Positions 1 to 31,998 of a stretch of DNA of 54,810 nucleotides are shown here, one piece after another. Under the pieces are notes generated by a model. That model did not search any database. It was given only the letters and a program-made list of their open reading frames with translations, and was not told where the DNA came from. The translations under genes were made by a program, and so were the position numbers. The DNA comes from Candidatus Bathyarchaeota archaeon. GTDB taxonomy: Archaea; Thermoproteota; Bathyarchaeia; TCS64; CBFDTC01. Position 1 is the first letter of the stretch, and every line of letters starts with the position of its first letter. The stretch lies in assembly GCA_965612785.1 (NCBI GenBank), contig CBFDTC010000001.1, positions 1 to 54,810 of the forward strand, given 5' to 3'.

Positions 1-1
1 C

Positions 2-1372: not shown

Positions 1373-1382
1373 GTTTGGAAAG

Positions 1383-1622
1383 CTAGCTTGTATGTGAGCG
1401 TATCGACTCCTCGTTGGTTAACAGGACCTTCAAGTAGGCGTTTCTGAGTGAAACATTAACTCCTGTTGTGTCAAAGTGACTCCTTTCCAGAGCTTTCAGG
1501 GTTTTTGATTGAAGAAAAATAATGATTTTTGCCTTATCTGCCTCATCGGCGTTTTGAAGTCTTTTGATAGATTCATTCGCATGTAGGTGAATTTTCCCCG
1601 AAAAAACATTTTCCTTGACTTC
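1383..1622 (-). pseudogene. Possible 5'-truncated gene remnant (startless open frame) at the low-GC/high-GC boundary
   Basis: This is a 79-codon stop-free frame in AT-rich DNA. It begins right after TAA (1623-1625) and ends at TAG (1383-1385). There is no ATG/GTG/TTG near its 5' end. The translation looks protein-like (..KIHLHANESIKRLQNADEADKAKIIIFLQSKTLKALERSHFDTTGVNVSLRNAYLKVLLTNEESIRSHTS). I did not recognise a family. Confidence 0.3.
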
Positions 1623-1634
1623 TTAAGGTAGGTT

Positions 1635-1907
1635 TCAGGTCTCTGATGGCTTTCTGGGCTTGACGAGGAACGAGCCGTCTGGCATAGACACGACCCTGTG
1701 CGTCCCCCTGAGACCAGCCCTGTGGACGGCCTTCCTCAGTAGGTCTCTGAACATCCTCCTGCCCATCTCTCCCTCCCCGTAAGCCACGGCCTGACCTCCT
1801 GCGTACTCCACGCCCTTGACCAAGCTCCTCAAGGCCTCCACGACCGCGTCCACTTCCTCGTCCTTCATCTTCGAAAACTTGACCGAGTACTCGAACCCTC
1901 TGGACAT
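1635..1907 (-). CDS. Small hypothetical protein (90 aa)
   Basis: ATG-initiated ORF with host-like high-GC codon usage. A TATA-like box lies about 30 nt upstream. No recognisable domain. Confidence 0.5.
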   Translation of the reverse strand: MSRGFEYSVKFSKMKDEEVDAVVEALRSLVKGVEYAGGQAVAYGEGEMGRRMFRDLLRKAVHRAGLRGTHRVVSMPDGSFLVKPRKPSET

Positions 1908-1932
1908 GTCAGTATCCTTTTGTCGGTAAAGA

Positions 1933-1940
1933 TTTTATAT
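1933..1940. promoter_or_regulatory. Shared A/T box (TTTTATAT) between divergent genes
   Basis: Its centre is about 30 nt from the ATG at 1907 (minus strand) and about 30 nt from the TTG at 1967 (plus strand). This fits archaeal TATA spacing for leaderless transcripts in both directions. Confidence 0.4.
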
Positions 1941-1966
1941 GTATCCACGTTTTTTAATGAAGTAAA

Positions 1967-3079
1967 TTGTGGAAATCGGCCAGAAAGCCGCTGCTGGTGG
2001 CGGTATGCGCGGCTTTGATCATCGCGACGCTGATCGTGGTTAGGGCTTCGCGTCAGGGCCCCTCCGCCCTCACCCTCGTAGTGGTCTACGGCTCGGAGAA
2101 GAGGGGTTGGATGGAGGAGGTTGCGCCGCTTTTCAACTCTGAGTGGAGTTCCAGCCATCCTGACACGCCGCTACAGCTTAAGCTTATACCGATGGGCTCT
2201 AGGGAGGCTGTGAACCAGATGCTGCTTGGGGAGATAAAGCCCGTGGTGTGGAGCCCCGCGTCCTCCATCTGGATCCCGTATGCGAACTACCTGTGGGAGG
2301 AGGAGTACGGCTACCCCCTGGTTACGGAGTGGGAGCCCCTCCTGTACTCGCCGATAGTCATAGGGACATGGGAAACCTACAGGGACGAATATAACATAAC
2401 CGGCTTCGAGAGTCTGCACAGGCTTGCGGAGAACCCGGATGCGGACCTTAAGTTCGCCCACACCGACCCAAGGCTCTCCAACTCGGGCATGATGGCTCTC
2501 ATACTGGAGGTGTCCGCGGCGGCTGGGAAGCCGCCGAGCGAGCTGACGGTGGACGACCTGCTGAGGGAGGACGTGTTCGAGTGGCTGAGCGAGTTGGAGG
2601 CGAGGGCCGTATTCTACGGAGAGAGCACGGGCTTCCTTGCGGACCAGGCCGCCAGCAGCGGACCGCAGTCCATCAACGCCTTCGTGGTCTACGAGAACCT
2701 GATAATCGAGAAGAACCGTCAGGGCGAGCCCCAGGCGAGGTGGGGTGAGAAGATAGTGGCCGTCTACCCTGCGGAGGGGACGCTGATGAGCGACCACCCC
2801 TACTGCATACTCAACGCCCCGTGGGTCACCCCGGAGCTCCGGGAGGCCGCCGAGGAGTTCCTGCGGTTCCTCAAGCGTCCCGACATACAGGAGCTGGCAA
2901 TAAAACACGGGTTCAGGCCCTCCGTGTCTGGGGTGGAGCTGGACCCATCCGTCTTCAGCCCTGAGAACGGCGTCCAGATGGACATCCCCTGTCCCGTACT
3001 CTCGTCGAGTGTGGACGGAGAGGTTATGGCCAGGATAACGGACCTGTGGACTGCGTGTAGGTTCGGTGGTGGAGGTTGA
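1967..3079 (+). CDS. ABC transporter periplasmic-type substrate-binding protein, N-terminal membrane anchor/signal; substrate unknown (oxyanion-type suspected)
   Basis: TTG start. The N-terminus has a hydrophobic segment (LLVAVCAALIIATLIVV). The length is typical of a type-2 PBP. A DPRLSNSGMMAL motif resembles the anion-binding S-x-S-G loops of PstS/ModA-like binding proteins. The stop overlaps the permease start by 4 nt. Confidence 0.7.
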   Translation: MWKSARKPLLVAVCAALIIATLIVVRASRQGPSALTLVVVYGSEKRGWMEEVAPLFNSEWSSSHPDTPLQLKLIPMGSREAVNQMLLGEIKPVVWSPASSIWIPYANYLWEEEYGYPLVTEWEPLLYSPIVIGTWETYRDEYNITGFESLHRLAENPDADLKFAHTDPRLSNSGMMALILEVSAAAGKPPSELTVDDLLREDVFEWLSELEARAVFYGESTGFLADQAASSGPQSINAFVVYENLIIEKNRQGEPQARWGEKIVAVYPAEGTLMSDHPYCILNAPWVTPELREAAEEFLRFLKRPDIQELAIKHGFRPSVSGVELDPSVFSPENGVQMDIPCPVLSSSVDGEVMARITDLWTACRFGGGG

Positions 3080-20715: not shown

Positions 20716-20721
20716 TTTTTT
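20716..20721 (+). terminator. Oligo-T tract downstream of metV
   Basis: A T6 run lies about 22 nt after the metV stop. Archaeal termination commonly uses oligo-T tracts. Confidence 0.35.
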
Positions 20722-20869
20722 AGAAGCTCTGGGCTGCTTCTATTCTGTCGCTGAGTTCGTTTATCATCTCCTCCAGGGCGCCTATGCGTTCCTCGATTTC
20801 CTCCAGCCTGTGGTTCAGGTCCTCTATCTGCTCTTCAAGTGCCGCTATCCTCTCCTCGAGGCTGCTCAT
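20720..20869 (-). CDS. 49-aa coiled-coil micro-protein (below the ORF-track cutoff)
   Basis: The ATG..TAA frame translates to MSSLEERIAALEEQIEDLNHRLEEIEERIGALEEMINELSDRIEAAQSF. Leu/Ile occupy an unbroken a/d heptad pattern (positions 4,8,11,15,18,22,25,29,32,36,39,43). It overlaps the last 35 nt of the upstream NTase gene in another frame. Confidence 0.5.
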   Translation of the reverse strand: MSSLEERIAALEEQIEDLNHRLEEIEERIGALEEMINELSDRIEAAQSF

Positions 20870-21962
20870 CGTCGCCACCAAGCCCAAGCTCACTAAAAGA
20901 TAATTTAACCCTATCGCTTCCAGAGGCCAGTTTGAGGCACTGTTCGAAGTACCTCGGCCCGTACGTTAGGGTAACCTGCCTCAGGGAGGCTCTGGGCGTC
21001 CTGTGTTCTTCAAGCCATCCGCACACGACTCCTCGCTCTCCGGCTTTGAGCTGGCCTCTGAACTCCTCCACGTACGACACCACCCTATCCACGTCGGGTC
21101 CCTCTAGGGCTTCGACGTGGTATACGGACGGCATGAACATCGACTCCGAGTCGTCGAGGACCTCGACTACGCACTCCGTGAAGCCGAGGTTGGTTATCTC
21201 CAAGTCGTCGCTGTATTCGTTCGTTATCTCCTCCCACCTCCTGACGGGCTCGAACTCCACCTTCACGGTCCTTCCGAGCCTCTCAGAGTCGTACACGCCG
21301 TATATCATCTTCCTCCTCTGGTACCAGCCGTACTCGGCCTTGCTGTACCTCAAGAACCTCCAGGTCATCGGATGCTCCTCAGGACGCCAACCCTCGAACT
21401 CGTTCCTCAGCCGTGTACCGGGGTCCCTGTACAGTTCTCTGAGCGTCTCGACGAGCCTCCGGGTCTCCCTGATGCCGTACACGGTTAGGTCTATGTCGCT
21501 GTACCTCGGGTTGTAGAAGTCGTGTAATAGGGAGCCGAACACGCCGAAGTCTCCGAGCCTGAGTCCAGAATGCTCTACGACCGTGTCCAGGAGCTCCCTC
21601 ATCGTCTCCACGAGCGGGTCGTCCCTGTCCGACTCGTACAGCCTTCTGAGGGCCTCATCCGGCCTCCTGACCTCGTGTATCTGGTCCTCAGAGACGCCTA
21701 CGAGCCTCCTCCTCAACGGTTTGTAGTAGACCTGGTACTGGGGGAACCTCTCCCTTACGAACCTCAGCCCTCCGTCGAAGTAGAACTTGTAGAACCTCCC
21801 AGCCCGTCCCTCCCTGATGGCCCTTGGGTCCCGGCTGACGTATACGCTCTCGTGGGCGTATTCGAGGTCGCACACCCAGGCTCCGGGTGGATGGTTGTAG
21901 CCGTAGACCCTGAAAAGGAGTCCCTCCTCGGTCACGGGGGAGTCCCTGTCCCTCAGCCTCAT
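20835..21962 (-). CDS. Pol-beta-superfamily nucleotidyltransferase paralog A (uncharacterised archaeal family)
   Basis: NTase motif FGVFGSLLHDFYNPRYSDIDLTVYG (G-S-x10-D-x-D). It shares N-terminal (RDRD..GLLF..GYNHPPG) and C-terminal (VLDDSESMFMPSVYHVE) modules with the two upstream paralogs. Its ATG overlaps the TGA of paralog B (ATGA). Confidence 0.85.
   Translation of the reverse strand: MRLRDRDSPVTEEGLLFRVYGYNHPPGAWVCDLEYAHESVYVSRDPRAIREGRAGRFYKFYFDGGLRFVRERFPQYQVYYKPLRRRLVGVSEDQIHEVRRPDEALRRLYESDRDDPLVETMRELLDTVVEHSGLRLGDFGVFGSLLHDFYNPRYSDIDLTVYGIRETRRLVETLRELYRDPGTRLRNEFEGWRPEEHPMTWRFLRYSKAEYGWYQRRKMIYGVYDSERLGRTVKVEFEPVRRWEEITNEYSDDLEITNLGFTECVVEVLDDSESMFMPSVYHVEALEGPDVDRVVSYVEEFRGQLKAGERGVVCGWLEEHRTPRASLRQVTLTYGPRYFEQCLKLASGSDRVKLSFSELGLGGDDEQPRGEDSGT
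21475..21514 (-). repeat. 40-nt segment identical to 22515-22554
   Basis: ccgtacacggttaggtctatgtcgctgtacctcgggttgt occurs verbatim in paralogs A and B (it encodes NPRYSDIDLTVYG). The flanking sequence is strongly diverged. Confidence 0.9.
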
Positions 21963-23011
21963 GGCCTGTCCACCAGGGGCTTTATGTAGCTGTTTGGGTA
22001 CTCGGTTGAGCCTACGAGAACCCTCATGTACACGCCCCCATCAGCCTTTTCAACCTTCTCGAGCTTGCCTGCGAGCTCTATTTGCTCTCCTTCGTAGGCC
22101 ACGTCGCAGAAAAGCCCCTCGTAGGAGACCACCTCCACAACCGTCTCGGCTTCCCGGGGTCCCTCCAACACCCTGACGTCCTCGACCCTGTACACGGCTG
22201 GTGTGTACATGGCCTCCCGTGAGTCGGAGACGGTTGCGAATGCTCTGACGAAACCGATGGGCCTGTAGGTGCGGTCTCCGTAGGCCTCGGTTATCTCCTC
22301 GTCCGTCTTGGTCGGGTGTATGGAGAACCTCCTGCCTTTGAACAGGCCGTAGTTCCACCTCCTTGAGGCGATGACCCTGACGGTCTTTCGGTCGAGGCCG
22401 AACATACCGGCCCTCCTCACACACCACTCCTCCAGCTCCCTCCTCCCCAGCCTCTCGACGACCCCGTCTCCGCCGCTGCGTATCCAATCCCTTACGCTGG
22501 AGGAGCTTCGTGCTCCGTACACGGTTAGGTCTATGTCGCTGTACCTCGGGTTGTGTATGGCTATCAGTATCGAACCAGTCACGCCGAGGTCCCCCACGGG
22601 CACATCTGCCCCACCCGAAATGGCTTCGGCGAGCTCCACGGTCTGGGCTTCGAGTTCGTCCCTCGGTCCCTCGTGGAGCATATGGGAGAGCCTCTGCTCG
22701 GGCATGTAGTACTTTCTGACGAGCCTCTTCGGGACGAAGGTCATACGTATCTGCCTCACGGGGCAGAACCTCACGTACTCCGGCCTCAAGGCCTGGAGCT
22801 CCTCCGTCATGCGCCGCACCTCGGACACGTGGTAGCGTCTCATGATCCTGGCGTAGGTCACCCCGCCTCTGGACCATATTCCGTCTCCTGGAGCGTACTT
22901 CGGGTACGCCGTGTAGCCGTCTGGGGGGTGGAGGTACCCGGTTAGGCAGAAGAACAGGCCGTCCACCGTCTCCACGTAGTCCCTGTCCTTCGGCTTCCTC
23001 AACCCAGACAC
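21959..23011 (-). CDS. Pol-beta-superfamily nucleotidyltransferase paralog B
   Basis: Motif LGVTGSILIAIHNPRYSDIDLTVYG. Alignment of the N-termini (KDRDYVETVDGLFF vs RDRDSPVTEEGLLF) supports a start at the GTG at 23011 or the TTG at 23002 (TTGA overlap with the stop of paralog C). The ATG at 23059 in the ORF track is less likely. Confidence 0.8.
   Translation of the reverse strand: MSGLRKPKDRDYVETVDGLFFCLTGYLHPPDGYTAYPKYAPGDGIWSRGGVTYARIMRRYHVSEVRRMTEELQALRPEYVRFCPVRQIRMTFVPKRLVRKYYMPEQRLSHMLHEGPRDELEAQTVELAEAISGGADVPVGDLGVTGSILIAIHNPRYSDIDLTVYGARSSSSVRDWIRSGGDGVVERLGRRELEEWCVRRAGMFGLDRKTVRVIASRRWNYGLFKGRRFSIHPTKTDEEITEAYGDRTYRPIGFVRAFATVSDSREAMYTPAVYRVEDVRVLEGPREAETVVEVVSYEGLFCDVAYEGEQIELAGKLEKVEKADGGVYMRVLVGSTEYPNSYIKPLVDRP
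22515..22554 (-). repeat. 40-nt segment identical to 21475-21514
   Basis: See the partner copy. The two copies lie exactly 1040 nt apart at the catalytic motif of adjacent paralogs. Confidence 0.9.
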
Positions 23012-23952
23012 CTCATGTACTCCTCCTGGGTGGCGGAGCCTACCACGAGCCTCGTCCAAGCCCTGCCGTGGAGCTCCGCCCTCTCCAAGAAGCCCCTAAC
23101 CTCGACCACCTCGCCCGGCCGGGCGTACATCCTGTAGGCTCCGACCATCGAGACGACTTCAGAGACCCTCCAGGCATGTTCCCCACCCTCCAGCACCTCC
23201 AGGGTTTCGACTCTGTAGACGGCGGGTCTGAACATGGCCTCCGAGTCGTCGAGGACTCTGCACACCACCTTGGCGGGGCCTATCGGCGTGGCCTGTGGTT
23301 CCTCCTCGATTTCCTCGTACTTTCTCACGGCGTTCACCACGAAACGCCTCCCCATGAACCTCCCCACGTTCCCCCTCCTCGCCTCGTCCTGGGTGGACCT
23401 ACTCAGCTCGAGAACACCCTCCCCCTCAAGCTCCCTTAAGGCCTCCAAGACCCTGAGGTAGTTTCGACCACCGTAGACCGTCAGGTCTACGTCGCTGAGC
23501 TCGTCGTGCATGCCGAGGCATATGGAGCCGTGTATGCCGAAGTCCTCCAGCGGCACCCCGGAGCTCTCGGAGAGGGTCTCGACGAGCCTGACGGCCACCT
23601 CCTCCAGTTCGTCTCTATGTTCCTTCGCCAAAAGCCTCCTAAGAGCCCCGGCCGGCGTGTAGGTCTCCCGTACGTGGCTCAGCGGTGGGGCGACTACGTC
23701 TCTTCGGAGGTTTGGATGCCTGTACACGTGGTGGGGCATGTGCCTCCTGAACGTCTCCAACACGATTCTGTAATGGTTTGGGCTGAACAGCGTCTTAGGC
23801 CTGAGCATGCGTTCCCCACGGAAAACCCAGACCCTGTCCAGCCAATCGAGGGGGAAGAGCTCCGAGATGCGTTCGGGGACGTACTTCAGGAACGCTACGA
23901 CCCTGCCGTTGGGGTGGTGGTACCCGAACGTGTAGAATATCAGTCCCTCCAC
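22999..23952 (-). CDS. Pol-beta-superfamily nucleotidyltransferase paralog C
   Basis: Motif FGIHGSICLGMHDELSDVDLTVYGG. The C-terminal module is VLDDSEAMFRPAVYRVE. The annotated start is a GTG at 23952. Homologous coding sequence without any start codon continues upstream (see findings). Confidence 0.8.
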   Translation of the reverse strand: MEGLIFYTFGYHHPNGRVVAFLKYVPERISELFPLDWLDRVWVFRGERMLRPKTLFSPNHYRIVLETFRRHMPHHVYRHPNLRRDVVAPPLSHVRETYTPAGALRRLLAKEHRDELEEVAVRLVETLSESSGVPLEDFGIHGSICLGMHDELSDVDLTVYGGRNYLRVLEALRELEGEGVLELSRSTQDEARRGNVGRFMGRRFVVNAVRKYEEIEEEPQATPIGPAKVVCRVLDDSEAMFRPAVYRVETLEVLEGGEHAWRVSEVVSMVGAYRMYARPGEVVEVRGFLERAELHGRAWTRLVVGSATQEEYMRCLG

Positions 23953-23998
23953 GGAGACGAACGGGTCTCCGTCCCTCGGCCTCCAGGCCTCGGCCCCT

Positions 23999-24877
23999 TC
24001 AACGGCTGGCGAGTTGGATGACGTGGTTAACTACCTCCTCGACTACTTTCGTCTTCGAGACCCTCTGAAGCCCCATCCACCCCGGCATGCTGTTCACCTC
24101 GACAACGTACAACCGTCCGTCCGTCGTCTTCACCAAGTCCACCCCAGAGTACTCGCATCCTACGGCTCTCGAAGCCCTGACCGCCAGCCTCTCCTCCTCC
24201 GGAGTTGGGTTGTACGGTCTCGGTTCGGCTCCCTGCGACACGTTCGTCTTCCACGTACCGCCGACCCTCTGCATGGATGCGACGACTCGGTCTCCGACGA
24301 CGAACATCCTGAGGTCTACGTTTCCGTGGGGTATGTACTCCTGGAGGTAGTAGACGCACCTGGAAAGCTGGAGCGCCCTGAAGACCCTGTACGCCAGGTC
24401 CCTGTCCTCGACCCTCATGACTCCCCTCCCGAGAGACCCGAACAGGGGTTTGACGACCACGTCTCCACCCAGCTCCTCGAAGGCGTCCATGGCGTCCCAG
24501 AAGTTCTCGCACGCCACAGTCCTCGGAACCGGTATGCCCTCGTCCTCCAGGATGGTTAGGACCCTGTACTTGTCGGCCGCAATCTCAATTGAAAGCGGTG
24601 GGTTCACGACGACCACACCGAGCCTCCGGAGTCTGTGGAGGACGTCCATCCTGAAGAAGACCTGCTCCGGAGAGCCTCCAGGTAAACTCCTGACTATCAG
24701 GGCGTCGAGGTTGTCCACCCGGACGCCTGAGCAGTACACCCGATCTTCCACCGACACTTTGGCTTTGAACTCCCTCGGCTTGAGGAAGGGAGCTTCTACT
24801 CCACGTTTCCCGAGCTCCTGGACTATCTGCTTGACATGTTCGTCCTCCAGACTCTTCCCTAGGACGCCTATCCTCAT
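23999..24877 (-). CDS. RimK-family ATP-grasp alpha-L-glutamate ligase (MptN/CofF-like)
   Basis: The ATP-grasp pattern ..GDVVVKPLFGS.GRGV.. / YLQEYI.. / DLRMFVVGDRVVASMQR..G.WKTN.SQG.. / GVDLV....G.LYVVEVNS.PG is typical of RimK/MptN/CofF/LysX ligases. It starts 16 nt downstream of fwdC. Confidence 0.85.
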   Translation of the reverse strand: MRIGVLGKSLEDEHVKQIVQELGKRGVEAPFLKPREFKAKVSVEDRVYCSGVRVDNLDALIVRSLPGGSPEQVFFRMDVLHRLRRLGVVVVNPPLSIEIAADKYRVLTILEDEGIPVPRTVACENFWDAMDAFEELGGDVVVKPLFGSLGRGVMRVEDRDLAYRVFRALQLSRCVYYLQEYIPHGNVDLRMFVVGDRVVASMQRVGGTWKTNVSQGAEPRPYNPTPEEERLAVRASRAVGCEYSGVDLVKTTDGRLYVVEVNSMPGWMGLQRVSKTKVVEEVVNHVIQLASR

Positions 24878-24893
24878 CTAAGGGTTGAAAAAA

Positions 24894-25751
24894 CTAAGTG
24901 TTGGTTAAACGTTTTCTATCGCTTAGCAGGAATATCTCTCCTCCGCCTCCCTCGGCCAAGTCTCCGTGGTACCTGTCGTACACAGCGTCCATGTACCTGG
25001 AAGCCTCCTCGACCCCGTACGTCCGGTGGAGCTCCCTCATCAACAGCCTTATGAACGTCGGGCTGTACGTGGCGTCGTACACGAACGTCGGAGGCATTTC
25101 CTCAACCCCTCCGTGGACTACTATCACGGCGCCCTTGTTCCCCATGTGGGCTCCCAAGCCCCTTCCGGCTCTGCCGAACACGATTATCGTCCCGGCCACC
25201 ATGTCGGCTCCGAGGAACTCCCCGGCGTCCCCCAGCACGACGAGCAGACCCCTCCTCATACCCCTGCAGGCCTCCCCCCCGACGCTCCCATGGACGATTA
25301 TGGCTCCGCCCGTCATGCCGAACGGGCTTCCGAGGTAGGAGGCCCCGAGGAAGTGGTCTGCGTTCCCTCGAATCCTGAGGACGCCCCCGCTCATCTCAGC
25401 GCCAGACCACTCCCCGACGTCTCCCTCGACGACGATTTCACCCCCGCTCATCTTCGCGCCCGTGTGGGCTCCGCTCCGGCCTTGGATGACTATCCTGCCG
25501 GCGGTCATCTCGTATCCGATGTACTTTACGGTCGGCACGTCTCCCTCGACGACTATCTCCGTGTCCTCGGCGCTGTCCCCAGCCTCTCCGTAGACCTCGA
25601 ACAGGTCTCCGAGCCTCCTACGTCTCTTCCCGACCCACAAGGTCAGGTTCCGGAGCTCTTCGACCGTCTTGCCTGCGAACTCGTCTGGGGTTATACAGTA
25701 TGCCTCCACGGGGACTTTCGGAAGCTCCTTTGGCTTGAGCCTAACCGTCAC
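24894..25751 (-). CDS. fwdC: Formylmethanofuran dehydrogenase subunit C
   Basis: Repetitive Gly-rich beta-helix (..GGEIVVEGDVG..SGGVLRIRGNA..GGAIIVHGSVG..GTIIVFGRAG..) typical of FwdC/FmdC. Confidence 0.9.
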   Translation of the reverse strand: MTVRLKPKELPKVPVEAYCITPDEFAGKTVEELRNLTLWVGKRRRRLGDLFEVYGEAGDSAEDTEIVVEGDVPTVKYIGYEMTAGRIVIQGRSGAHTGAKMSGGEIVVEGDVGEWSGAEMSGGVLRIRGNADHFLGASYLGSPFGMTGGAIIVHGSVGGEACRGMRRGLLVVLGDAGEFLGADMVAGTIIVFGRAGRGLGAHMGNKGAVIVVHGGVEEMPPTFVYDATYSPTFIRLLMRELHRTYGVEEASRYMDAVYDRYHGDLAEGGGGEIFLLSDRKRLTNT

Positions 25752-25754
25752 GTC

Positions 25755-26693
25755 TCACACCCCCAGACAGTCCTTCAGGTAGATGAGGTACTTACCCAGC
25801 CTGCCGCCGTAGTTCCCTGCCGTTATGCCCAATACGCCGTCCACCTTCACAGCCTCCCTGATGCCCACGGCCATCGCCTTCTTAACCGACTCGAGGTCCA
25901 CGCCGTTTATCACGATCTCGAACACCGAGCCGACCCCCTCCGGAACCTGGGTGTCCGGAACCTCAGCCCTCAGCGTCGGACACAGAGGCGTGTTCGTCGA
26001 AGCCCTCAGGAACTTGTACCGTGAACCCACCTTGCTACCGCTCCTGCACACCCCGCCGGGGAACGGCGTTATGACGCCCCTGATGGGCTCTATGGCCTTC
26101 ACGGCTCTCTCCGAGGCTTCCAGGGCTGAGTCTACGTCCCTCCCGAGGATTATGAAGTTCCCCCCGGCCACGCCCCTCTTCATCCCGAACTTGTCTTCGA
26201 TGAGGAATTCGCCCTCCATGACTGGTATCCTCCACAGGCGTCTCTTGGCTCCGAGGCCGTCCCCGAGCCTGACCTTCTTCTGGTAGCCGTCTCCGAAGAA
26301 CCTAAGCCTCCCACCGAGGCTTACAGTGTCCTCAGCCTCCTCGAGCGGGATGCCGTTGTAAACGGCTGAAGTGGGGCTCGTCAGGACGCACTGTCCCACC
26401 CTGCGGAGGAGCTGGTCCTCCATGTCCTTCCTGCCCGTGAACACGAGGACGCTGACCCCAGGCCTCCCGTCGGGCGTCTCGTCAGGGCTGAGTTCGCACT
26501 CTATGCCCGCCTCGCAGCCGCACATTATTATCGAGGTAGCGAACCCCGTCATCGTCTGGGCGGCTATCCTCGCCCACCTGGCGTTCTTGGCGGTTATTAT
26601 CAGCCTCGAAACCCAAAGCCTGAAGGCCTCTGCGAACGTGTCCTCTACCCTAACCCCATTCAGCTCGAACGCCAACTCACCCACCTCCAGCAT
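25755..26693 (-). CDS. ftr: Formylmethanofuran:tetrahydromethanopterin N-formyltransferase
   Basis: N-terminal NGV.VEDTFAEAF....R..ITA.N..WA..AA...TGFATS.I.C..EAGIE is diagnostic of Ftr. Length is about 300 aa. Confidence 0.93.
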   Translation of the reverse strand: MLEVGELAFELNGVRVEDTFAEAFRLWVSRLIITAKNARWARIAAQTMTGFATSIIMCGCEAGIECELSPDETPDGRPGVSVLVFTGRKDMEDQLLRRVGQCVLTSPTSAVYNGIPLEEAEDTVSLGGRLRFFGDGYQKKVRLGDGLGAKRRLWRIPVMEGEFLIEDKFGMKRGVAGGNFIILGRDVDSALEASERAVKAIEPIRGVITPFPGGVCRSGSKVGSRYKFLRASTNTPLCPTLRAEVPDTQVPEGVGSVFEIVINGVDLESVKKAMAVGIREAVKVDGVLGITAGNYGGRLGKYLIYLKDCLGV

Positions 26694-28380
26694 GGACCTC
26701 GACAGGGTTGGGAAGGTACACGTCTTGGACCGGGTAGTTGCTCAGCTTCATGGTGTAGTACTTCTCGAACACCTCCCCCACCTCCTCCAAAACCTGCTCC
26801 CTCACGTCCTCCTGGACGGACGCCCTAACCCAGAACGTGTTTCCAAGTGGGGTTGAGACTATCCTCCCATCCCACACGACGATTTCGCCTCCCTTAACGA
26901 CGTACTTCGCCCTCGAGAAGGCCTTCTCTATGCTCCTGTAGTCCGACGAGTCGAGCCTGTTCGGGTCTATCGGGTACACCGCCACATCTGCGTCCGCACC
27001 GACTCCGAGGTGGCCCTTATCCCTCAAGCTCAGGGCCTTGGCCGTCGCTGCCCTCGTCACTATGGCAATCTCGTAGAGCGTGTACTCCCGGTATATGTCG
27101 GCTATCTCCGTCTTCCTGAACACGGCTCCGTGCATCCCGGCCATCGTGTCGGACCTTGCCTTACGGCTCATCAGCCACGCTATGACCCTCGGGTAGTGGG
27201 TGAACGGAGCTCCGTTCGGGTGGTCTGTCGTCAGGTAGACCCTCCATAGGTCCTTCATCAGCAGCATCACCTCCAGGCCTATGGCCCACTGAACAGCGTT
27301 GACGGGACTCTTCTTCTTGAACGTGTAGGGGACTATGCCCGCCCCCGTCTCGAACTCCACGTCCGAGTTTATCCACTTGTTCCCCGTCAGCTTGTAAAGC
27401 CTGAACTGCCAAGGTCCGTCGGCCGTCATCGTAGTCGTGTCCGTGAAGTCTATCTGACCTACGTCCACGGTCACGTGTTCATGCTTGTTCAGGTAGTCCA
27501 CTATCTCAGGACCTCCTGACCTAAAGTCCCTCCAATCCTTCCCTGCGAAAGCGTTGAACTGCACGTGGGTTACGTGTATCACCGCCTTCCTGCCGGGTGC
27601 AGGTTCGACGCCTCTGACGGCCTCCATCGTCTCTATGGTCGTCTCGTAGTTTCCCGGGACGCCGAGGTTGTTGCAGTGGACGTGTATCGTGTGCGGCAGC
27701 CCGAGCGACTCGTTAGCCCTCGCCAGCCCGACGACTATCTGCCTCGGCGTGACGCCGAAGCCCTCCACGACGTCGTCTATCGACTCGACGTCCTTACCCC
27801 ACTTCCACATCTCGACGCCGCCCGGGTTGACTATCTTGACTGCGTAGCCCTTCGTGGCCCACAGGAGCCAGGCCACGAACGCCTTCAGCTTCTCTAGGTC
27901 TCCCTCGGAGACGTACTTGAGGACGAAGTAGTTGTTTCCCATCAGCGGGAAGAAGGCCTTGTCGACTATCGGGGTGTCGTTGAGCTCCTCGTGGACGTGT
28001 CTCGCACCCAGCGGAGGCCCTGCTGGCTCTATGACGGTCGTGTACCCCATGAGGGCGTACCTGTACCCAGTCACGAAGGTCGACGGAACCGAGTACCCGA
28101 CTCCAGCCCTCGTCACGTCCGTCCTTGGGACTACGTCCTTCCTGTGGTCTTCGGGCCTCATCAGCCTTCCGAGGTTGACCTTCGACCCTGCTATGTGGCT
28201 GTGTATGTCCACGCCGCCGGGCATGACGGTCATGCCTGAGGCGTCTATGACCTTTGCCTTAGACTCGTCCACGGACTCCACTACCTTGCCGTCCCTTATG
28301 CAGATGTCCATACGCTCCCCGTCCACGCCGTTCAGGGGGTCGAAGACGTATCCACCCTTTATGAGGAGCTCCACCCTCAC
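26677..28380 (-). CDS. fwdA: Formylmethanofuran dehydrogenase subunit A (amidohydrolase fold)
   Basis: 567 aa. The metal-binding pattern GG.DIHSHIAGSKVN and overall similarity match FwdA/FmdA. Confidence 0.93.
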   Translation of the reverse strand: MRVELLIKGGYVFDPLNGVDGERMDICIRDGKVVESVDESKAKVIDASGMTVMPGGVDIHSHIAGSKVNLGRLMRPEDHRKDVVPRTDVTRAGVGYSVPSTFVTGYRYALMGYTTVIEPAGPPLGARHVHEELNDTPIVDKAFFPLMGNNYFVLKYVSEGDLEKLKAFVAWLLWATKGYAVKIVNPGGVEMWKWGKDVESIDDVVEGFGVTPRQIVVGLARANESLGLPHTIHVHCNNLGVPGNYETTIETMEAVRGVEPAPGRKAVIHVTHVQFNAFAGKDWRDFRSGGPEIVDYLNKHEHVTVDVGQIDFTDTTTMTADGPWQFRLYKLTGNKWINSDVEFETGAGIVPYTFKKKSPVNAVQWAIGLEVMLLMKDLWRVYLTTDHPNGAPFTHYPRVIAWLMSRKARSDTMAGMHGAVFRKTEIADIYREYTLYEIAIVTRAATAKALSLRDKGHLGVGADADVAVYPIDPNRLDSSDYRSIEKAFSRAKYVVKGGEIVVWDGRIVSTPLGNTFWVRASVQEDVREQVLEEVGEVFEKYYTMKLSNYPVQDVYLPNPVEVHAGGG

Positions 28381-29678
28381 ATCACCTCCCTGACACGTCT
28401 GATTACCATCTCCAAGACCTCCCTGTCCGGGAGGACCCCCTCAGGCGGGTCGACTATCTTCTTCAGTCTTATGGGAACCCCGTCCATGCGGTACGCCGTC
28501 CCCTCACACTCTATCCCGGATGCGGCTACCGGTATCACCACGTCAGCCATCATGGCAGTCATGTTCACCTTACAGTCCATGACCGCCAGCGGTATCCTGG
28601 CCAGATGCCTGGCCGCCTCGACGGGGAAGTGGGCTGCGGGGTCCGACGCTATTATCAGAGCGGCGTCCACCTCCCCCCTTGCCAGGAGGTCTACGGCCCA
28701 GAACTCCCCCGGCCCGTACCTCGGGTAGCCTCTGCTGAAGTCCACCGCGTACGGGTACCCCGTCTGCCAGGTCGAAACGGTGTTTGCCCCAGCCACGTTG
28801 AAGTGCCCCCTCATGGGCATCATGACGAACTTCGTGTGGGAGTTCAGGTCCCTCACAAGCCTCGCCAACGCCTCCACGTTCATGTGCCTCCCGGGGCTCA
28901 TCGTGACCCCGACCCCGAAGAACACGACGCCGAACTTACAGGTCTTCATCTTCTCCGCCATCTCCCTCACGGTGTCCATCGGGACGCCTGCCACCTCCTC
29001 GACTGGGAGGTCGTACCCCCTCAGGACAGCCCTCAAGGCCTGCACGAGCTCGAAGTCCCTCCCAGGCTTGACTTTGACGAACATGTCGGCTAGCCTGGCG
29101 GTTCCCGTCCTGCGTACGTCGACGACGATGACGAACCTGTCCTTGCGGCCCTGGATGAACATGCCCTTCGGCAGGACCGAGTACCTTGCCATGTGTCTCA
29201 GGAACGACGCAGTTGGGTTGCACCCCCAGAACACGACGAGGTCGGCTCTGTTCTTCATCTCCCCGAGGGTGGCCTTGGGCTCCCCCACGGCCTGGAGGGC
29301 GAGTATGGTCGGTCCGTGGCAGACGGAGGCGGTGTTGTCCACGACGGCTCCGACGAGCTCTCCGAGCTCTATGGCCTTGGATATGGCGTCGCACTCCGTG
29401 GAGCTGAGTCCGTATATAAGCGGCCAGTCGGCCTCGACGAGCATCCTCGCCAACTCGTCCACGGCCTCCTCCAGAGTGGTCTCGACGAGCTTTCCGTCCC
29501 TGCGTACCATCGGCTTCAGGATGCGGTTTCTGTGGTGGTTCCTGAACTTGCTGGAGGATATACCACACCCGTTCTTCACCTCGACTATCCTCCCATCCTC
29601 CACTCGGACGACTATGTCGTCGCACAGGCACCCACAGAACGGACACACGACGTCCTCGTACACGGGCACGTCCATCAC
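28377..29678 (-). CDS. fwdB: Formylmethanofuran dehydrogenase subunit B (molybdo/tungstopterin-binding)
   Basis: N-terminal Fe-S motif CPFCGCLCDD and an MopB-type body with an active-site Cys (NTASVCHGPT). There is no in-frame TGA. W versus Mo cannot be told from the sequence. Confidence 0.9.
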   Translation of the reverse strand: MMDVPVYEDVVCPFCGCLCDDIVVRVEDGRIVEVKNGCGISSSKFRNHHRNRILKPMVRRDGKLVETTLEEAVDELARMLVEADWPLIYGLSSTECDAISKAIELGELVGAVVDNTASVCHGPTILALQAVGEPKATLGEMKNRADLVVFWGCNPTASFLRHMARYSVLPKGMFIQGRKDRFVIVVDVRRTGTARLADMFVKVKPGRDFELVQALRAVLRGYDLPVEEVAGVPMDTVREMAEKMKTCKFGVVFFGVGVTMSPGRHMNVEALARLVRDLNSHTKFVMMPMRGHFNVAGANTVSTWQTGYPYAVDFSRGYPRYGPGEFWAVDLLARGEVDAALIIASDPAAHFPVEAARHLARIPLAVMDCKVNMTAMMADVVIPVAASGIECEGTAYRMDGVPIRLKKIVDPPEGVLPDREVLEMVIRRVREVM

Positions 29679-30067
29679 CCCCTAAGCATCTGGACTAAGT
29701 CCTCCAGGGTCGGGACTTTCATGCCTGGGGCTGGGGAGACCTCCGCCTCCACGCTCTTGAACTGGGGCATGCCGACCCCCCTGGTGTGGGAGCTTATGAC
29801 CGCGTTTGCCCACGGGCCGTAGGGCATGAACGCCACACCCTCATCCAACCCCTTGGAGACCTTACACCAGACCACCACAGAGCCGACGCCCGTCTTCACG
29901 GAGACCGTGTCGCCGTCGGAGACTCCCAGCTTCTCAGCGTCGGAGGGGCTGAGCTCTACGACCGCCACAGCCCTACGGTACTCTTCAGACGTCTTGCCGA
30001 TCTCCATCGTCATACCCTGCTTGGCCGTTCGACCAGTTATGAGCGTGACCCTCACACTCAAGCTCAT
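29675..30067 (-). CDS. fwdD: Formylmethanofuran dehydrogenase subunit D (molybdopterin dinucleotide-binding barrel)
   Basis: 130 aa with the pattern ..LITGRT..QG........S.EY....A..ELSP.DA.KLG...GD.V.V.T..GSVVV. It has an ATGA overlap with fwdB. Confidence 0.9.
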   Translation of the reverse strand: MSLSVRVTLITGRTAKQGMTMEIGKTSEEYRRAVAVVELSPSDAEKLGVSDGDTVSVKTGVGSVVVWCKVSKGLDEGVAFMPYGPWANAVISSHTRGVGMPQFKSVEAEVSPAPGMKVPTLEDLVQMLRG

Positions 30068-30076
30068 AACACCCCC

Positions 30077-31039
30077 TCAGATTTCCAGCCCGAGCCTAAG
30101 TATCTCCGCGTTTATCCCACCAGCCCTGAAGACCCTGCCCGTCCTGACGTTCGTGACCACCACGCCGGCTGGTGCGAAGAGGGCTGGGTCTATCTTCGTG
30201 AAGTCGAAGTCCACCTCCTTGTATATCTCGTAGCTGGGCTTACCGTACGACGGGGAGCTTGAGGAAGGCGTCTTCGACACCAGGTCGGCCAGCCAACCCT
30301 CATCTTCGACGTCCACGAGGTAGGAGGCGAAGCCCCCGTAGGTCAGGGCATCCTCACACCGACCTATCGCCACACCCCAGTCTGGGTGGGGTGGCATGAC
30401 CGGTGCGTACCCCGACGCATGTAGGACGCTGTTCGGGTCGAGTCCGAGGTACTCCATCTTGAACAGGCCTGTCTCGGCTATCCTGCCGGATATCTGCGTC
30501 GAACCTGCGTAGGAGGTTGTGGACGTCAAGACTATGTACACCTCTTTAGGTTCGACGTCGCACTTCTCGCTTATGAAGAGGGCAACCTCATCCCCCGGCT
30601 TCTTCGAGGTCTCCAGGACTATGACCGCAGAGTCGTAGTCGTCCTGATATCCGATCTTCTTGAAGACTCTCTTAGGCTTCAGGGCGAGGGCCCTCGCCGG
30701 CCCAGAACCGTCTCCCGTGAAGTCTCCCACCCTAACCCTCCAGCCGGCCAGCTGACAGCCAAGCAGGGATACGGCAGGCCTGTCTGTCGACACCACCACG
30801 GTCGGAAGCGTCAGGTCTCCGTACTCCACGTACGTCAACGAGACCTCGGCCAGGCCGCCCATCGCTATCTCCGTAACTTTAAGGCCGGCCAGTACGCCTC
30901 CGGGCGCCTCAAGACCTGTGTCTATGACGGTGGCGCCGCATCCGAGTTTCTCAACCTTCACTCCGTATAGCTCAGGCTCTTCGAGAAGCTGCTCGACAAC
31001 CTTCAGGGCGAGCTTGTTTACGCTTAATTTAGACATCAC
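30077..31039 (-). CDS. mch: Methenyltetrahydromethanopterin cyclohydrolase
   Basis: Strong pattern match to Mch (..G.TVID.G.EA.GG..AG......MGGLA.V.L...........V.V.TD.PA...L..Q.AGW.V.VGD....GSGPARALALKPK..). The GTG at 31039 is followed immediately by an ATG at 31036. Confidence 0.93.
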   Translation of the reverse strand: MMSKLSVNKLALKVVEQLLEEPELYGVKVEKLGCGATVIDTGLEAPGGVLAGLKVTEIAMGGLAEVSLTYVEYGDLTLPTVVVSTDRPAVSLLGCQLAGWRVRVGDFTGDGSGPARALALKPKRVFKKIGYQDDYDSAVIVLETSKKPGDEVALFISEKCDVEPKEVYIVLTSTTSYAGSTQISGRIAETGLFKMEYLGLDPNSVLHASGYAPVMPPHPDWGVAIGRCEDALTYGGFASYLVDVEDEGWLADLVSKTPSSSSPSYGKPSYEIYKEVDFDFTKIDPALFAPAGVVVTNVRTGRVFRAGGINAEILRLGLEI

Positions 31040-31056
31040 AGTATGTTGTATGGAAC

Positions 31057-31064
31057 AATTAAAA
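31057..31064 (-). promoter_or_regulatory. TATA-like box (TTTTAATT) for the mch-fwd-ftr operon
   Basis: Its centre is about 24-25 nt upstream of the mch ATG (31036). This is consistent with a leaderless transcript. Confidence 0.5.
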
Positions 31065-31305: not shown

Positions 31306-31998
31306 TCAAGCCTTCTCGAGGATTATCTTGACGTCCACGGCCACGGCGCCTTCCTCGTAGACGTGTATCGGGTTCAGGTCTACCTCACCTATCTCCCGGA
31401 GCTCCGTCACCATCCTGGAGACCTTGAGTATGATTTCCTTGACCGCCTCCAAGTCCGCAGGGGGTCTCCCACGGTACCCCCTGAGTATCCTGTACCCCCT
31501 GATCTCCCGTATCATCTCTTCGGCATCTGCCTCGGAGACGGGGGCGACCCTGAAGGAGACGTCGTCCAAAACCTCGACGAACACTCCTCCAAGCCCGAAC
31601 ATCACGGTCGGCCCGAACTGTCTGTCCCTGAAGGCTCCGACTATCACTTCGACCCCTTCTTTGACTTGTTCTTCGACGAGGACTCCGACTATCTCGGCCG
31701 ATGGGATCCTGTTCAACGTGTTCTCCACGACCTTCCTGTAGGCCTCTCTGACCTCCTCCCGGTTGGAGACGTTGAGGAAGACCCCGCCTACGTCGGTTTT
31801 GTGGACGACCTGCGGTGAGACCACCTTGAGGACGACTGGGTATCCGATTCTCTCGGCGTGTTCGACCGCCTCCTCGACGCTCCTCGCCAGCTCGAACCTC
31901 GGGACGGGTATCCCGTACTCGATGCAGAGGCGTTTAGCCTCAGGCTCCATCAGTACGTACCGCCCCTCCATCCTCGCCCTCGCTATCACGGATGTCAA
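31306..31998 (-). CDS. acdB: ADP-forming acetyl-CoA synthetase (acetate--CoA ligase), beta subunit (ATP-grasp_5)
   Basis: Close pattern match to Pyrococcus ACS beta: ..L.EPEAK.L...YGIPVP.F..A.....A......IGYPVV.K.VSPQ..HK.D.GGV.... and ..DPQFGP.VMFGLGG.FVE.L.DVSFRVAP....DA.EMIREI.. Confidence 0.9.
   Translation of the reverse strand: MTSVIARARMEGRYVLMEPEAKRLCIEYGIPVPRFELARSVEEAVEHAERIGYPVVLKVVSPQVVHKTDVGGVFLNVSNREEVREAYRKVVENTLNRIPSAEIVGVLVEEQVKEGVEVIVGAFRDRQFGPTVMFGLGGVFVEVLDDVSFRVAPVSEADAEEMIREIRGYRILRGYRGRPPADLEAVKEIILKVSRMVTELREIGEVDLNPIHVYEEGAVAVDVKIILEKA

Follow-up and report, generated by a model that had tools for sequence, protein, structure and literature searches.

What three consecutive nucleotidyltransferase-like genes are doing at the end of an archaeal one-carbon (C1) operon is the question raised by this locus. 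The window (the whole stretch of DNA analyzed, 54,810 nt of contig CBFDTC010000001.1 from a Candidatus Bathyarchaeota archaeon, assembly GCA_965612785.1) contains an array of mch-fwdDBA-ftr-fwdC, followed by a RimK/MptN-like ATP-grasp gene, the three nucleotidyltransferase (NT) genes NT3, NT2, and NT1, and a 49-aa coiled-coil gene; all of these open reading frames (ORFs) lie on the minus strand, and the gaps between them range from -17 to +46 nt. Both the C1 genes upstream, identified here with Pfam, and the MetF/MetV genes and then cdh genes on the other flank are where an earlier, first-pass annotation of the sequence had placed them. That annotation had also suggested that the NT proteins modify a C1 cofactor or another component of the pathway. 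The analysis described here places them in an ancient, archaea-specific family of three-domain Pol-beta-type nucleotidyltransferases without a characterized role, whose members are tentatively proposed to help construct a C1-coenzyme side chain.

The three NT proteins are paralogs with 31-34% identity by full-length pairwise BLASTP (NT1/NT3, E = 6e-31; NT1/NT2, E = 2e-26; NT2/NT3, E = 5e-42), and each contains all three motifs of the common architecture described at first pass: G-L-x-F-x3-G-Y-x-H-P in the N-terminal part, G-S-x9-10-S-D-[IV]-D-L-T-V-Y-G in the center, and V-[LS]-D-[DS]-x-E-[AS]-M-[FY]-x-P-[AS]-V-Y-[RH]-V-E in the C-terminal part. The central motif conforms to the Pol-beta signature (hG[GS], with [DE]x[DE] 9-13 residues on), represented in NT1 numbering by G143-S144 and D156-x-D158. 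Across the four main clades of the family, described below, G140, G143, S144, S155, D156, and D158 are 100% conserved and E245 and E318 are conserved in at least 96% of members; the G-S...D-x-D catalytic motif is retained in every clade, including in MJ1086 of Methanocaldococcus jannaschii. Judged from these residues, all of the copies look catalytically competent.

The AlphaFold2 model of NT1 (pLDDT 90.2) consists of a beta-rich N-terminal domain (residues 1-100), the nucleotidyltransferase core, and a C-terminal OB-like barrel (residues ∼251-348), followed by a tail (residues 349-375) with pLDDT below 50. A Foldseek search of the PDB with the full-length model gave no whole-protein match, and whole-query TM-scores were <0.2; PDB relatives were likewise not found by sequence or by family profile. 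No NCBIfam model matched the NT proteins, and Pfam gave only a weak match to the generic NTP_transf_2 model (cut-off 21), at 22.2 bits for NT1, 16.2 bits and thus below the cut-off for NT3, and 39.6 bits for MJ1086, with no match for NT2. The first-pass statement that this architecture has no characterized function was thus borne out, and UniProt lists the methanogen member as "Uncharacterized protein MJ1086". The label "predicted nucleotidyltransferase", which the same annotation had suggested, is the name given by JGI to many members. The literature searched contained no paper on the family and none that dealt with a CitG-like enzyme of the methanopterin pathway. The nucleotidyltransferase superfamily is known, but the three-domain family, its clades, its coupling to CitG-like and C1 genes, and its proposed role appear to be undescribed in the available databases and literature.

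NT1 was searched against 5.8 billion proteins, which yielded 1245 relatives at 45-60% identity from Bathyarchaeia, several Asgard lineages, and Thermofilaceae, and an exhaustive family-profile search of 1.84 billion cluster representatives (50% identity) identified 1295 members. Among the members listed, those of full length were all ∼330-385 aa, and no fusions were seen. Among the named hits, the family was not seen in haloarchaea, Thermococci, or Thermoplasmata, and bacterial labels were limited to three metagenome-assembled genomes (MAGs; Chloroflexi, Anaerolineales, and Acidiferrales), which are suspected to contain mis-binned archaeal contigs. Clustering of 179 members from 80 genome loci, to which 124 representatives were added, resolved four main clades, NT1, NT3, NT2a, and NT2b, and a small fifth, euryarchaeal clade containing MJ1086. 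The window NT3, NT2, and NT1 fall into the NT3, NT2a, and NT1 clades, respectively, and each is closer to orthologs in other phyla than to its neighbors; they are therefore ancient paralogs rather than products of recent tandem duplication. The window NT2 is 39% identical to a Vulcanisaeta gene and 40% identical to an Ignisphaera gene, both of which abut a CitG-like gene. MJ1086 (UniProt Q58486) is 28.6% identical to the window NT2 over 343 aa (E = 1e-40) and has the same three motifs as the window proteins at a similar length; however, it belongs to the separate euryarchaeal clade, is apparently a single gene, and is coupled to MJ1085, which encodes an NYN-like protein, rather than to C1 genes.

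The genomic neighborhoods of the family were compared among 80 NT1-anchored loci from species-representative genomes, in which all adjacent ORFs were clustered without bias and labeled with Pfam, and in additional genome and contig loci (identifiers of the form L0xx). In 47 of the 80 loci, NT1 is immediately preceded by a co-directional NT3 (median gap, -1 nt); copies of NT2a or NT2b are found near NT1 in Bathyarchaeia and Thermofilaceae, and the order in the window, NT3-NT2a-NT1, also occurs in Thermofilaceae. The most common neighbor other than an NT gene encodes a CitG-family protein (19 loci), followed by an ECF-S-like membrane protein, fwdDBAC, ftr, mch, MobB, an Asn-synthase-like ligase, and RimK ligases. 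The ftr gene directly adjoins NT2a in all 10 ftr-holding loci, and the CitG-like gene is at most two genes from NT2a or NT2b in 18 of 19 loci. The CitG-like protein as the strongest partner, which is absent from the window, had not been foreseen at first pass, and neither had the four to five ancient clades or the methanogen member MJ1086.

The link to C1-carrier enzymes for which the first-pass annotation had suggested a neighborhood survey is not confined to the window and recurs, with varying gene order, in Vulcanisaeta, Ignisphaera, a Sulfolobales MAG, Bathyarchaeia, Thermofilaceae, an Odinarchaeota-labeled MAG, and a Methanobacteriota MAG. The array of the window is the same in its sister organism (L089). 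In a hydrothermal metagenome contig (L088), fwdD-B-A-ftr-fwdC is followed by a RimK ligase gene that fwdC overlaps, then by NT3, with NT2a two genes on. In Vulcanisaeta sp. JCM 14467 (L085), an MptE-like gene, ftr-fwdBD-fwdA-fwdC-mch, a RimK ligase gene on the opposite strand, and NT2a overlapping a CitG-like gene are succeeded by co-directional MfnD-like and MfnB-like genes, and then by MfnE-like, TIGR03123 (MfnF-like, passing its cut-off), Fae, and SHMT genes. In Ignisphaera (L091), NT2a directly follows the CitG-like gene, and in the Sulfolobales MAG (L092) an MfnB-family gene is followed by NT2a, with the CitG-like gene 5 kb away. The Odinarchaeota-labeled MAG (L081) has NT2b-NT2a beside ftr, then CofE-like, cdhD, cooT, cooC, and DUF166 genes and NT3-NT1; L087 has an ATP-grasp_3 gene and then three NT paralogs beside cdh genes; and in the Methanobacteriota MAG (L097) a RimK ligase gene and an NT gene are divergent. 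Two arrangements were seen in Bathyarchaeia, namely NT3-NT1-NT2b-(ECF-S-like)-CitG-fwdDBAC-mch in one group and ftr-NT2a-...-NT3-NT1-creatininase-FMN_red-flavoprotein (PF02441) in another; the FMN_red and PF02441 families include the dihydromethanopterin reductases DmrX and DmrB/AfpA. The recurrence of CitG-like, MptN-like, ftr/fwd/mch, Mfn-like, and flavoprotein partners points to a C1-coenzyme system and, within it, to enzymes that build the side chain.

An ECF-transporter S-component-like protein is encoded between NT2b and the CitG-like gene in a series of Bathyarchaeia (L037, L041-L044, L047, L051, L053, L056, L069, L070, and others), and in those loci the NT cluster adjoins MobB and the cell-division genes Cdv/ESCRT-III/Vps4. 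In a euryarchaeal contig (L099, 6066-8005), a D-2-hydroxyacid dehydrogenase gene is divergent beside the NT gene, which would suit a supply of 2-hydroxyacid, although this is a single case. A GHMP-like gene beside the CitG-like gene in the Sulfolobales MAG was considered as RFAP synthase (MptG) and was rejected, as NCBIfam identified it as pantoate-kinase-like.

The ATP-grasp protein ahead of NT3 was assigned at first pass to the RimK-type glutamate ligases. The family assignment holds, since the protein passes the NCBIfam rimK_fam model (TIGR00768; 196 bits, cut-off 143.4), matches Pfam RimK (112 bits) and Rimk_N (32.6 bits), and has both pre-ATP-grasp and ATP-grasp domains; these matches identify the gene as encoding a RimK-type glutamate ligase. 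The best equivalog was MptN_Meth (NF040720), which matched over the full length at 266 bits but fell under the curated cut-off of 350, so that orthology to MptN is plausible rather than established. MptN was also the top equivalog for every NT-adjoining ligase compared (266, 289, 228, and 153 bits for the window and three other lineages), with no match or a weak match to MfnD. The window ligase, whose family also includes RimK, CofF, and LysX, could equally glutamylate methanofuran or another tail.

Known chemistry suggests how these partners might act together. CitG and CitX form an alpha-glycosidic 5-triphosphoribosyl adduct from ATP, from which CitX, an enzyme of nucleotidyltransferase fold, makes a ribosyl-5-phosphodiester to a hydroxyl with release of pyrophosphate. 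Methanopterin contains an alpha-ribofuranosyl-5-phosphate that is glycosidically linked to ribitol and joined by a phosphodiester to 2-hydroxyglutarate, to whose carboxyl end MptN adds glutamate. We know of no identified enzymes for several late steps of this pathway, those in which the alpha-ribosyl-5-phosphate is added and hydroxyglutarate is attached, and the literature searched gave no candidates for them. Because the linkage made by CitG and CitX is the same as that in methanopterin, a three-step scheme is proposed. In the first step, the CitG-like protein would transfer a 5-triphosphoribosyl group from ATP, in alpha linkage, to the hydroxyl of ribitol in the pterin-aminophenyl-ribitol intermediate, and adenine would be released. 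In the second, the NT protein would join the alpha-phosphate to a hydroxyl acceptor, 2-hydroxyglutarate in methanopterin or possibly another hydroxyl compound in particular lineages, releasing pyrophosphate and forming the ribosyl-5-phosphodiester. In the third, the RimK/MptN-like ligase would add glutamate at the carboxylate end. The paralogs, among them the tightly coupled pair NT3 and NT1 and the NT2a and NT2b forms, could form heteromers or could catalyze successive or lineage-specific tail additions. The broader proposal, that the family acts with the CitG-like protein and the MptN-like ligase in C1-coenzyme side-chain biosynthesis, most likely of the methanopterin (tetrahydromethanopterin, H4MPT) type, is judged to have somewhat less than an even chance of being correct; the specific phosphodiester-forming step by the NT enzyme is a good deal more doubtful and is offered by analogy.

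The resemblance to the CitG-CitX and MdcB-MdcG pairs extends to gene organization, as in both cases a CitG-family gene is paired, often with overlap, with a gene encoding a Pol-beta-fold protein: citX precedes and overlaps citG by 26 nt in E. coli K-12 (L100, 3632-5036), and NT2a precedes and overlaps the CitG-like gene by 14 nt in Vulcanisaeta (L085, 8001-10062). The proteins themselves differ, however. The NT proteins are twice as long as CitX, with an additional N-terminal beta domain and OB-like barrel, and did not match the Pfam CitX/MdcG models at E up to 0.1; the archaeal CitG-like proteins are far under the CitG and MdcB equivalog cut-offs, a carrier protein is absent, and the presumed acceptor is a small molecule. 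The F420 pathway provides a second precedent, since CofC and CofD build a 2-hydroxyacid phosphodiester on a coenzyme via a nucleotidyl-activated intermediate, and by this route the NT protein would instead activate phospho-hydroxyglutarate; CofC, however, has a MobA-like rather than a Pol-beta fold, and no CofD-like gene was seen beside the NT genes. Methylotrophic bacteria make dephospho-H4MPT, which lacks the phosphate and hydroxyglutarate. Among the named hits no genuine bacterial NT homolog was evident, and mch, a glutamate ligase gene, and a CitG-like gene are kept together in methylotrophs (PMC3615186, PMC11533326).

Several observations weigh against a methanopterin side-chain role. This functional reading is drawn from gene neighborhood and chemical analogy, and the analogy does not extend to sequence, as CitX has no detectable relation to the NT family (hhalign against E. 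coli CitX, probability 3.7%). No CitG-like gene was found in the window. Nineteen NT1-anchored Asgard loci have no C1 gene within three genes; there, NT3-NT1 lies by KTI12, ThiDN, and IlvC, and the Jordarchaeia/Freyarchaeia loci read XPD / carbamate kinase / ThiDN / KTI12-NT3-NT1-IlvC. C1 genes are also lacking at a Korarchaeota locus, one Bathyarchaeia subgroup has dCMP deaminase-NT1-(micro-ORF)-CoaBC, and MJ1086 is not adjacent to C1 or cofactor genes. Much of the signal from Bathyarchaeia may represent inherited synteny rather than independent events. Because C1-enzyme genes cluster with the genes for biosynthesis of both H4MPT and methanofuran, the target coenzyme is not resolvable from gene context. 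In addition, the donor of the second ribose in the published methanopterin scheme is reportedly phosphoribosyl pyrophosphate, not ATP, and the proposed scheme does not explain why three or four paralogs, all of them catalytically intact, would be required.

The strongest alternative is that the NT proteins act on nucleic acid, for example in tailing or repair of the 3' ends of tRNA or small RNAs, with the barrel and the basic N-terminal domain holding the RNA and the C1 genes being near only through inherited synteny. Terminal uridylyl- and adenylyltransferases and the archaeal CCA-adding enzyme have the same core fold and the G-S...D-x-D motif, and such enzymes were the top Foldseek matches of NT1; matches of the core to TUT7, GLD-2, CCA-adding enzyme, OAS, and CdnE were weak, however (E 0.02-0.4), and identified an alpha/beta nucleotidyltransferase fold. 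With every E at least 0.02 and the low whole-query TM-scores given above, this similarity is generic to the fold, and the flanking domains of the NT proteins are unlike those of the RNA-acting enzymes, whose PAP-associated and tail domains they lack. The barrel resembled SSB/RPA (probability 0.8-0.94, target TM-score ∼0.5), yet with E of at least 0.05, and in three of the four main clades, NT1, NT3, and NT2a, its median isoelectric point (pI) is acidic, at 5.2-5.4 (6.8, near neutral, in NT2b), which would speak against binding of nucleic acid. These three clades have a basic N-terminal domain (median pI 9-9.5, against 7.8 in NT2b), in line with the RNA alternative; modeled alone (pLDDT 94), this domain had no significant Foldseek match in the PDB, with CcdB-/Sm-like barrels the best at E = 0.8.

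Gene context likewise offers the RNA alternative some support. KTI12, of a tRNA-modification cofactor family, is directly upstream of NT3-NT1 in ∼9 Asgard/Thermoproteota loci, although this adjacency is limited to one conserved synteny block. In M. jannaschii (L094, L77117.1, 6475-9023), MJ1086 overlaps MJ1085 by 4 nt and is followed by the GHMP kinase gene MJ1087; MJ1085 is a 509-aa protein of EY-rich helical repeats with a C-terminal NYN/Zc3h12a RNase-like region (22.9 bits), but no MJ1085 homolog was found near NT genes at any other locus. By comparison, CitG-like, ftr, and MptN-like genes adjoin NT genes in at least seven lineages that differ in gene order, and the family is small, with 1295 representatives at 50% identity and with haloarchaea, Thermococci, and Thermoplasmata not among its named hits. 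An RNA-directed function is thus considered unlikely, while retaining a real share of the probability.

A second alternative is tailoring of the methanofuran rather than the methanopterin side chain, in which the variable glutamyl or tricarboxylate tail might be activated or joined and the ATP-grasp protein would be a methanofuran glutamate ligase. The NT genes lie in or beside fwd/ftr operons, whose enzymes use methanofuran; NT2a and the CitG-like gene of Vulcanisaeta are co-directional with the MfnD-like and MfnB-like genes and adjoined by the MfnE- and MfnF-like genes; NT2a of the Sulfolobales MAG is near an MfnB-family gene; and methylotrophs with poly-glutamylated methylofuran have a RimK-like ligase and a CitG-like gene by mch. 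The ligases, however, match MptN best and MfnD weakly or not at all. Moreover, known methanofurans contain no ribose, phosphate, or phosphodiester and thus have no obvious place for CitG-type or nucleotidyltransferase chemistry, which leaves this alternative clearly improbable.

A third alternative takes the CitG-CitX parallel literally, as a system resembling holo-carrier-protein synthesis in which the CitG-like protein would make triphosphoribosyl-dephospho-CoA or a similar compound and the NT protein would attach it covalently to a protein serine, possibly on a formyl-branch subunit or the coiled-coil protein. The order NT2a then CitG-like mirrors that of citX and citG, genes of CoA biosynthesis are occasional neighbors (CoaBC by NT1 in seven Bathyarchaeia loci and a pantoate-kinase-like gene by the CitG-like gene in the Sulfolobales MAG), and some lineages have a conserved micro-protein gene after NT1. 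Against CitG/MdcB equivalog cut-offs of 272-282 bits, however, the archaeal CitG-like proteins reach only 34-44 bits, the carrier proteins of citrate lyase and malonate decarboxylase are absent, sequence similarity to CitX is lacking, and the micro-protein has no conserved serine and occurs at only 5 of 78 loci; such a system is accordingly very unlikely. A related and slightly slimmer prospect, also drawn by analogy, is that the CitG-like and NT proteins might bind a C1 cofactor or CoA-type arm covalently, by way of ribosyl phosphate, to a formyl-branch protein, where it would serve as a swinging-arm prosthetic group in Fwd/Ftr-type complexes, with the coiled-coil protein or a +1 ATP-grasp::NT3 fusion (described below) as part of the machinery. 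Finally, a defense or toxin-antitoxin module, either an MNT/HEPN-type minimal nucleotidyltransferase or a CBASS-type cyclic-nucleotide synthase, is barely credible: Pol-beta folds are common in such systems and Foldseek gave a weak similarity to CdnE and OAS, but PADLOC models matched none of the three NT proteins, HEPN or effector partners are absent, the neighbors are housekeeping and C1 genes, and, unlike mobile defense islands, the orthologs keep 45-60% identity from phylum to phylum and share synteny with housekeeping genes.

If the role in methanopterin-type side-chain synthesis is correct, it would close a gap in the biosynthetic route to a coenzyme of central importance in methanogenesis, archaeal acetogenesis, and methylotrophy, and the Pol-beta nucleotidyltransferase superfamily would gain a new class of substrate; the expanded sets of paralogs in Thermoproteota and Asgard lineages would then be markers of still-unknown variants of the coenzyme side chain. 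The analysis names a testable candidate pair, the MJ1086-type nucleotidyltransferases and the CitG-like proteins, and the former have an apparently single-copy representative, MJ1086, in a model methanogen. If the enzymes act on RNA instead, they would still represent a widespread, structurally novel archaeal enzyme family without an assigned role.

Returning to the window, the junctions within the array agree with the first-pass reading: NT2 and NT1 overlap by ATGA, NT3 and NT2 meet at TTGA with an alternative in-frame GTG 9 nt upstream, and fwdC and the ATP-grasp gene are separated by 16 nt. The NT2 start that gives 347 aa is used by gene callers on three other metagenome contigs (same or sister organism), and a 366-aa reading from 23059 is less likely. 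Only six stretches in 20.6-31.4 kb reach 9/10 A/T or more; the element ahead of mch, GTTTTAATTG, is among them, is also the sole TTTTAA match in this interval, and is a candidate promoter of the unit. No AT-rich or TATA-like element was found in the 16-nt and 46-nt spacers that flank the ATP-grasp gene. Considering the tight spacing and the overlap of fwdC with the ligase gene in L088, the array is likely co-transcribed as a single 10-kb unit, as the first-pass annotation had it. The T6 run after fwdC was considered as an internal terminator and rejected, as the run is not conserved in L089 (TCTCTT).

The start of NT3 is less straightforward. The codons for its conserved RxRDxD motif (RPRDGDPFVS) precede the first canonical start, GTG 23952, and lie (window 23953-24001) in a frame that is open yet contains no ATG, GTG, or TTG. 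The same peptide is retained in L089 and L090 with one synonymous change (L089:9004-9060), and the equivalent codon is a TTG start in the distant L088 (6734-6790), TGG in the window, and TGT in L089. A ribosome shifting by +1 at the stop codon of the ATP-grasp gene (CGT TGA A) would enter the upstream NT3 frame and give a ligase::NT3 fusion with the predicted junction peptide ...IQLASR-EGAEAWRPRDGD.... A truncated N-terminus, a non-canonical start, and a frameshift are each possible. The positions of these features are collected in Table 1.

Table 1. Features of the minus-strand array, listed from its upstream end (window coordinates).
Feature	Position	Strand	Remarks
AT-rich TATA-like element GTTTTAATTG	31054-31064	(-)	∼20 nt upstream of mch start codon; candidate promoter
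mch, methenyl-H4MPT cyclohydrolase	30077-31039	(-)	Pfam MCH, 362 bits
fwdD-like, molybdopterin dinucleotide-binding domain protein	29675-30067	(-)	Pfam Molydop_binding, 78 bits; 4-nt overlap with fwdB start
fwdB-like, molybdopterin oxidoreductase subunit	28377-29678	(-)	Pfam Molybdopterin; 47-51% identity to equivalents in Bathyarchaeia loci
fwdA-like, amidohydrolase subunit of formylmethanofuran dehydrogenase	26677-28380	(-)	Pfam Amidohydro_3, 230 bits; 55-62% identity to equivalents in related loci
ftr, formylmethanofuran:H4MPT formyltransferase	25755-26693	(-)	Pfam FTR and FTR_C, 194 and 213 bits
fwdC-like, GXGXG protein	24894-25751	(-)	Pfam GXGXG
T6 run directly after fwdC stop	24888-24893	(-)	TCTCTT at same position in sister organism L089
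RimK-family ATP-grasp alpha-L-glutamate ligase, nearest MptN, 292 aa	23999-24877	(-)	Pfam and NCBIfam
GC-rich spacer, 46 nt, with open NT3 frame	23953-23998	(-)	Encodes RPRDGD without canonical start
Perfect 6-bp hairpin GGAGAC-ccgttc-GTCTCC	23955-23972	(-)	Just ahead of NT3 GTG 23952; kept in L089 and L090
NT3, NT3-clade nucleotidyltransferase, 317 aa from first canonical start	22999-23952	(-)	37-52% identity to NT3-clade genes
NT2, NT2a-clade nucleotidyltransferase, 347 aa from TTG overlapping NT3 stop	21959-23002	(-)	Clade found beside ftr and CitG-like genes elsewhere
NT1, NT1-clade nucleotidyltransferase, 375 aa	20835-21962	(-)	Pfam NTP_transf_2, 22.2 bits (cut-off 21); residues 349-375 an unconserved, disordered tail
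AT-rich TATA-like element TTAAATTATCTTTTAG within NT1 tail	20894-20909	(-)	∼30 nt upstream of micro-ORF ATG
Heptad coiled-coil micro-gene, 49 aa from its ATG, MSSLEERIAALEEQIEDLNHRLEEIEERIGALEEMINELSDRIEAAQSF	20720-20869	(-)	Called by gene callers in three other contigs

The first-pass annotation had described the 49-aa coiled-coil ORF as the end of the module. The ORF does represent a genuine small gene that is conserved: its 150 nt are 100% identical in L089, in which NT1 is 96.5% identical, and diverged heptad proteins of 45-57 aa, with substitutions that preserve the heptads, are encoded in the corresponding position behind NT1 at 5 of 78 loci, all from Bathyarchaeia. The description of the ORF as the end of the module, however, was not supported. 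The ORF overlaps the unconserved NT1 tail by 35 nt, and its start is preceded at ∼30-40 nt by an AT-rich, TATA-like box; the window copy of this box, TTAAATTATC, is within the dispensable NT1 tail, and equivalent (A)CTTATAA(A) boxes precede the ORF in Bathyarchaeia L007, L011, L030, and L032. With a TATA-like box of its own, the micro-ORF is probably transcribed alone and need not end the operon, and as most lineages lack it, it does not belong to the core of the system.

Outside the array, an Rfam scan of the window identified no RNA gene, and tRNA genes were likewise not found. The first 2000 nt of the window (1-2000) have a G+C content of 0.40-0.48, compared with ∼0.60 elsewhere, and encode a NosD-like beta-helix protein (8-1372); this low-G+C left end may have been acquired from elsewhere. 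Just upstream of mch, a second, unrelated ATP-grasp gene (31306-31998; ATP-grasp_5, 285 bits), of a model that covers the beta domain of ADP-forming acetyl-CoA synthetase, is followed by genes for a sugar epimerase/dehydratase and a pyridine-nucleotide disulphide oxidoreductase.

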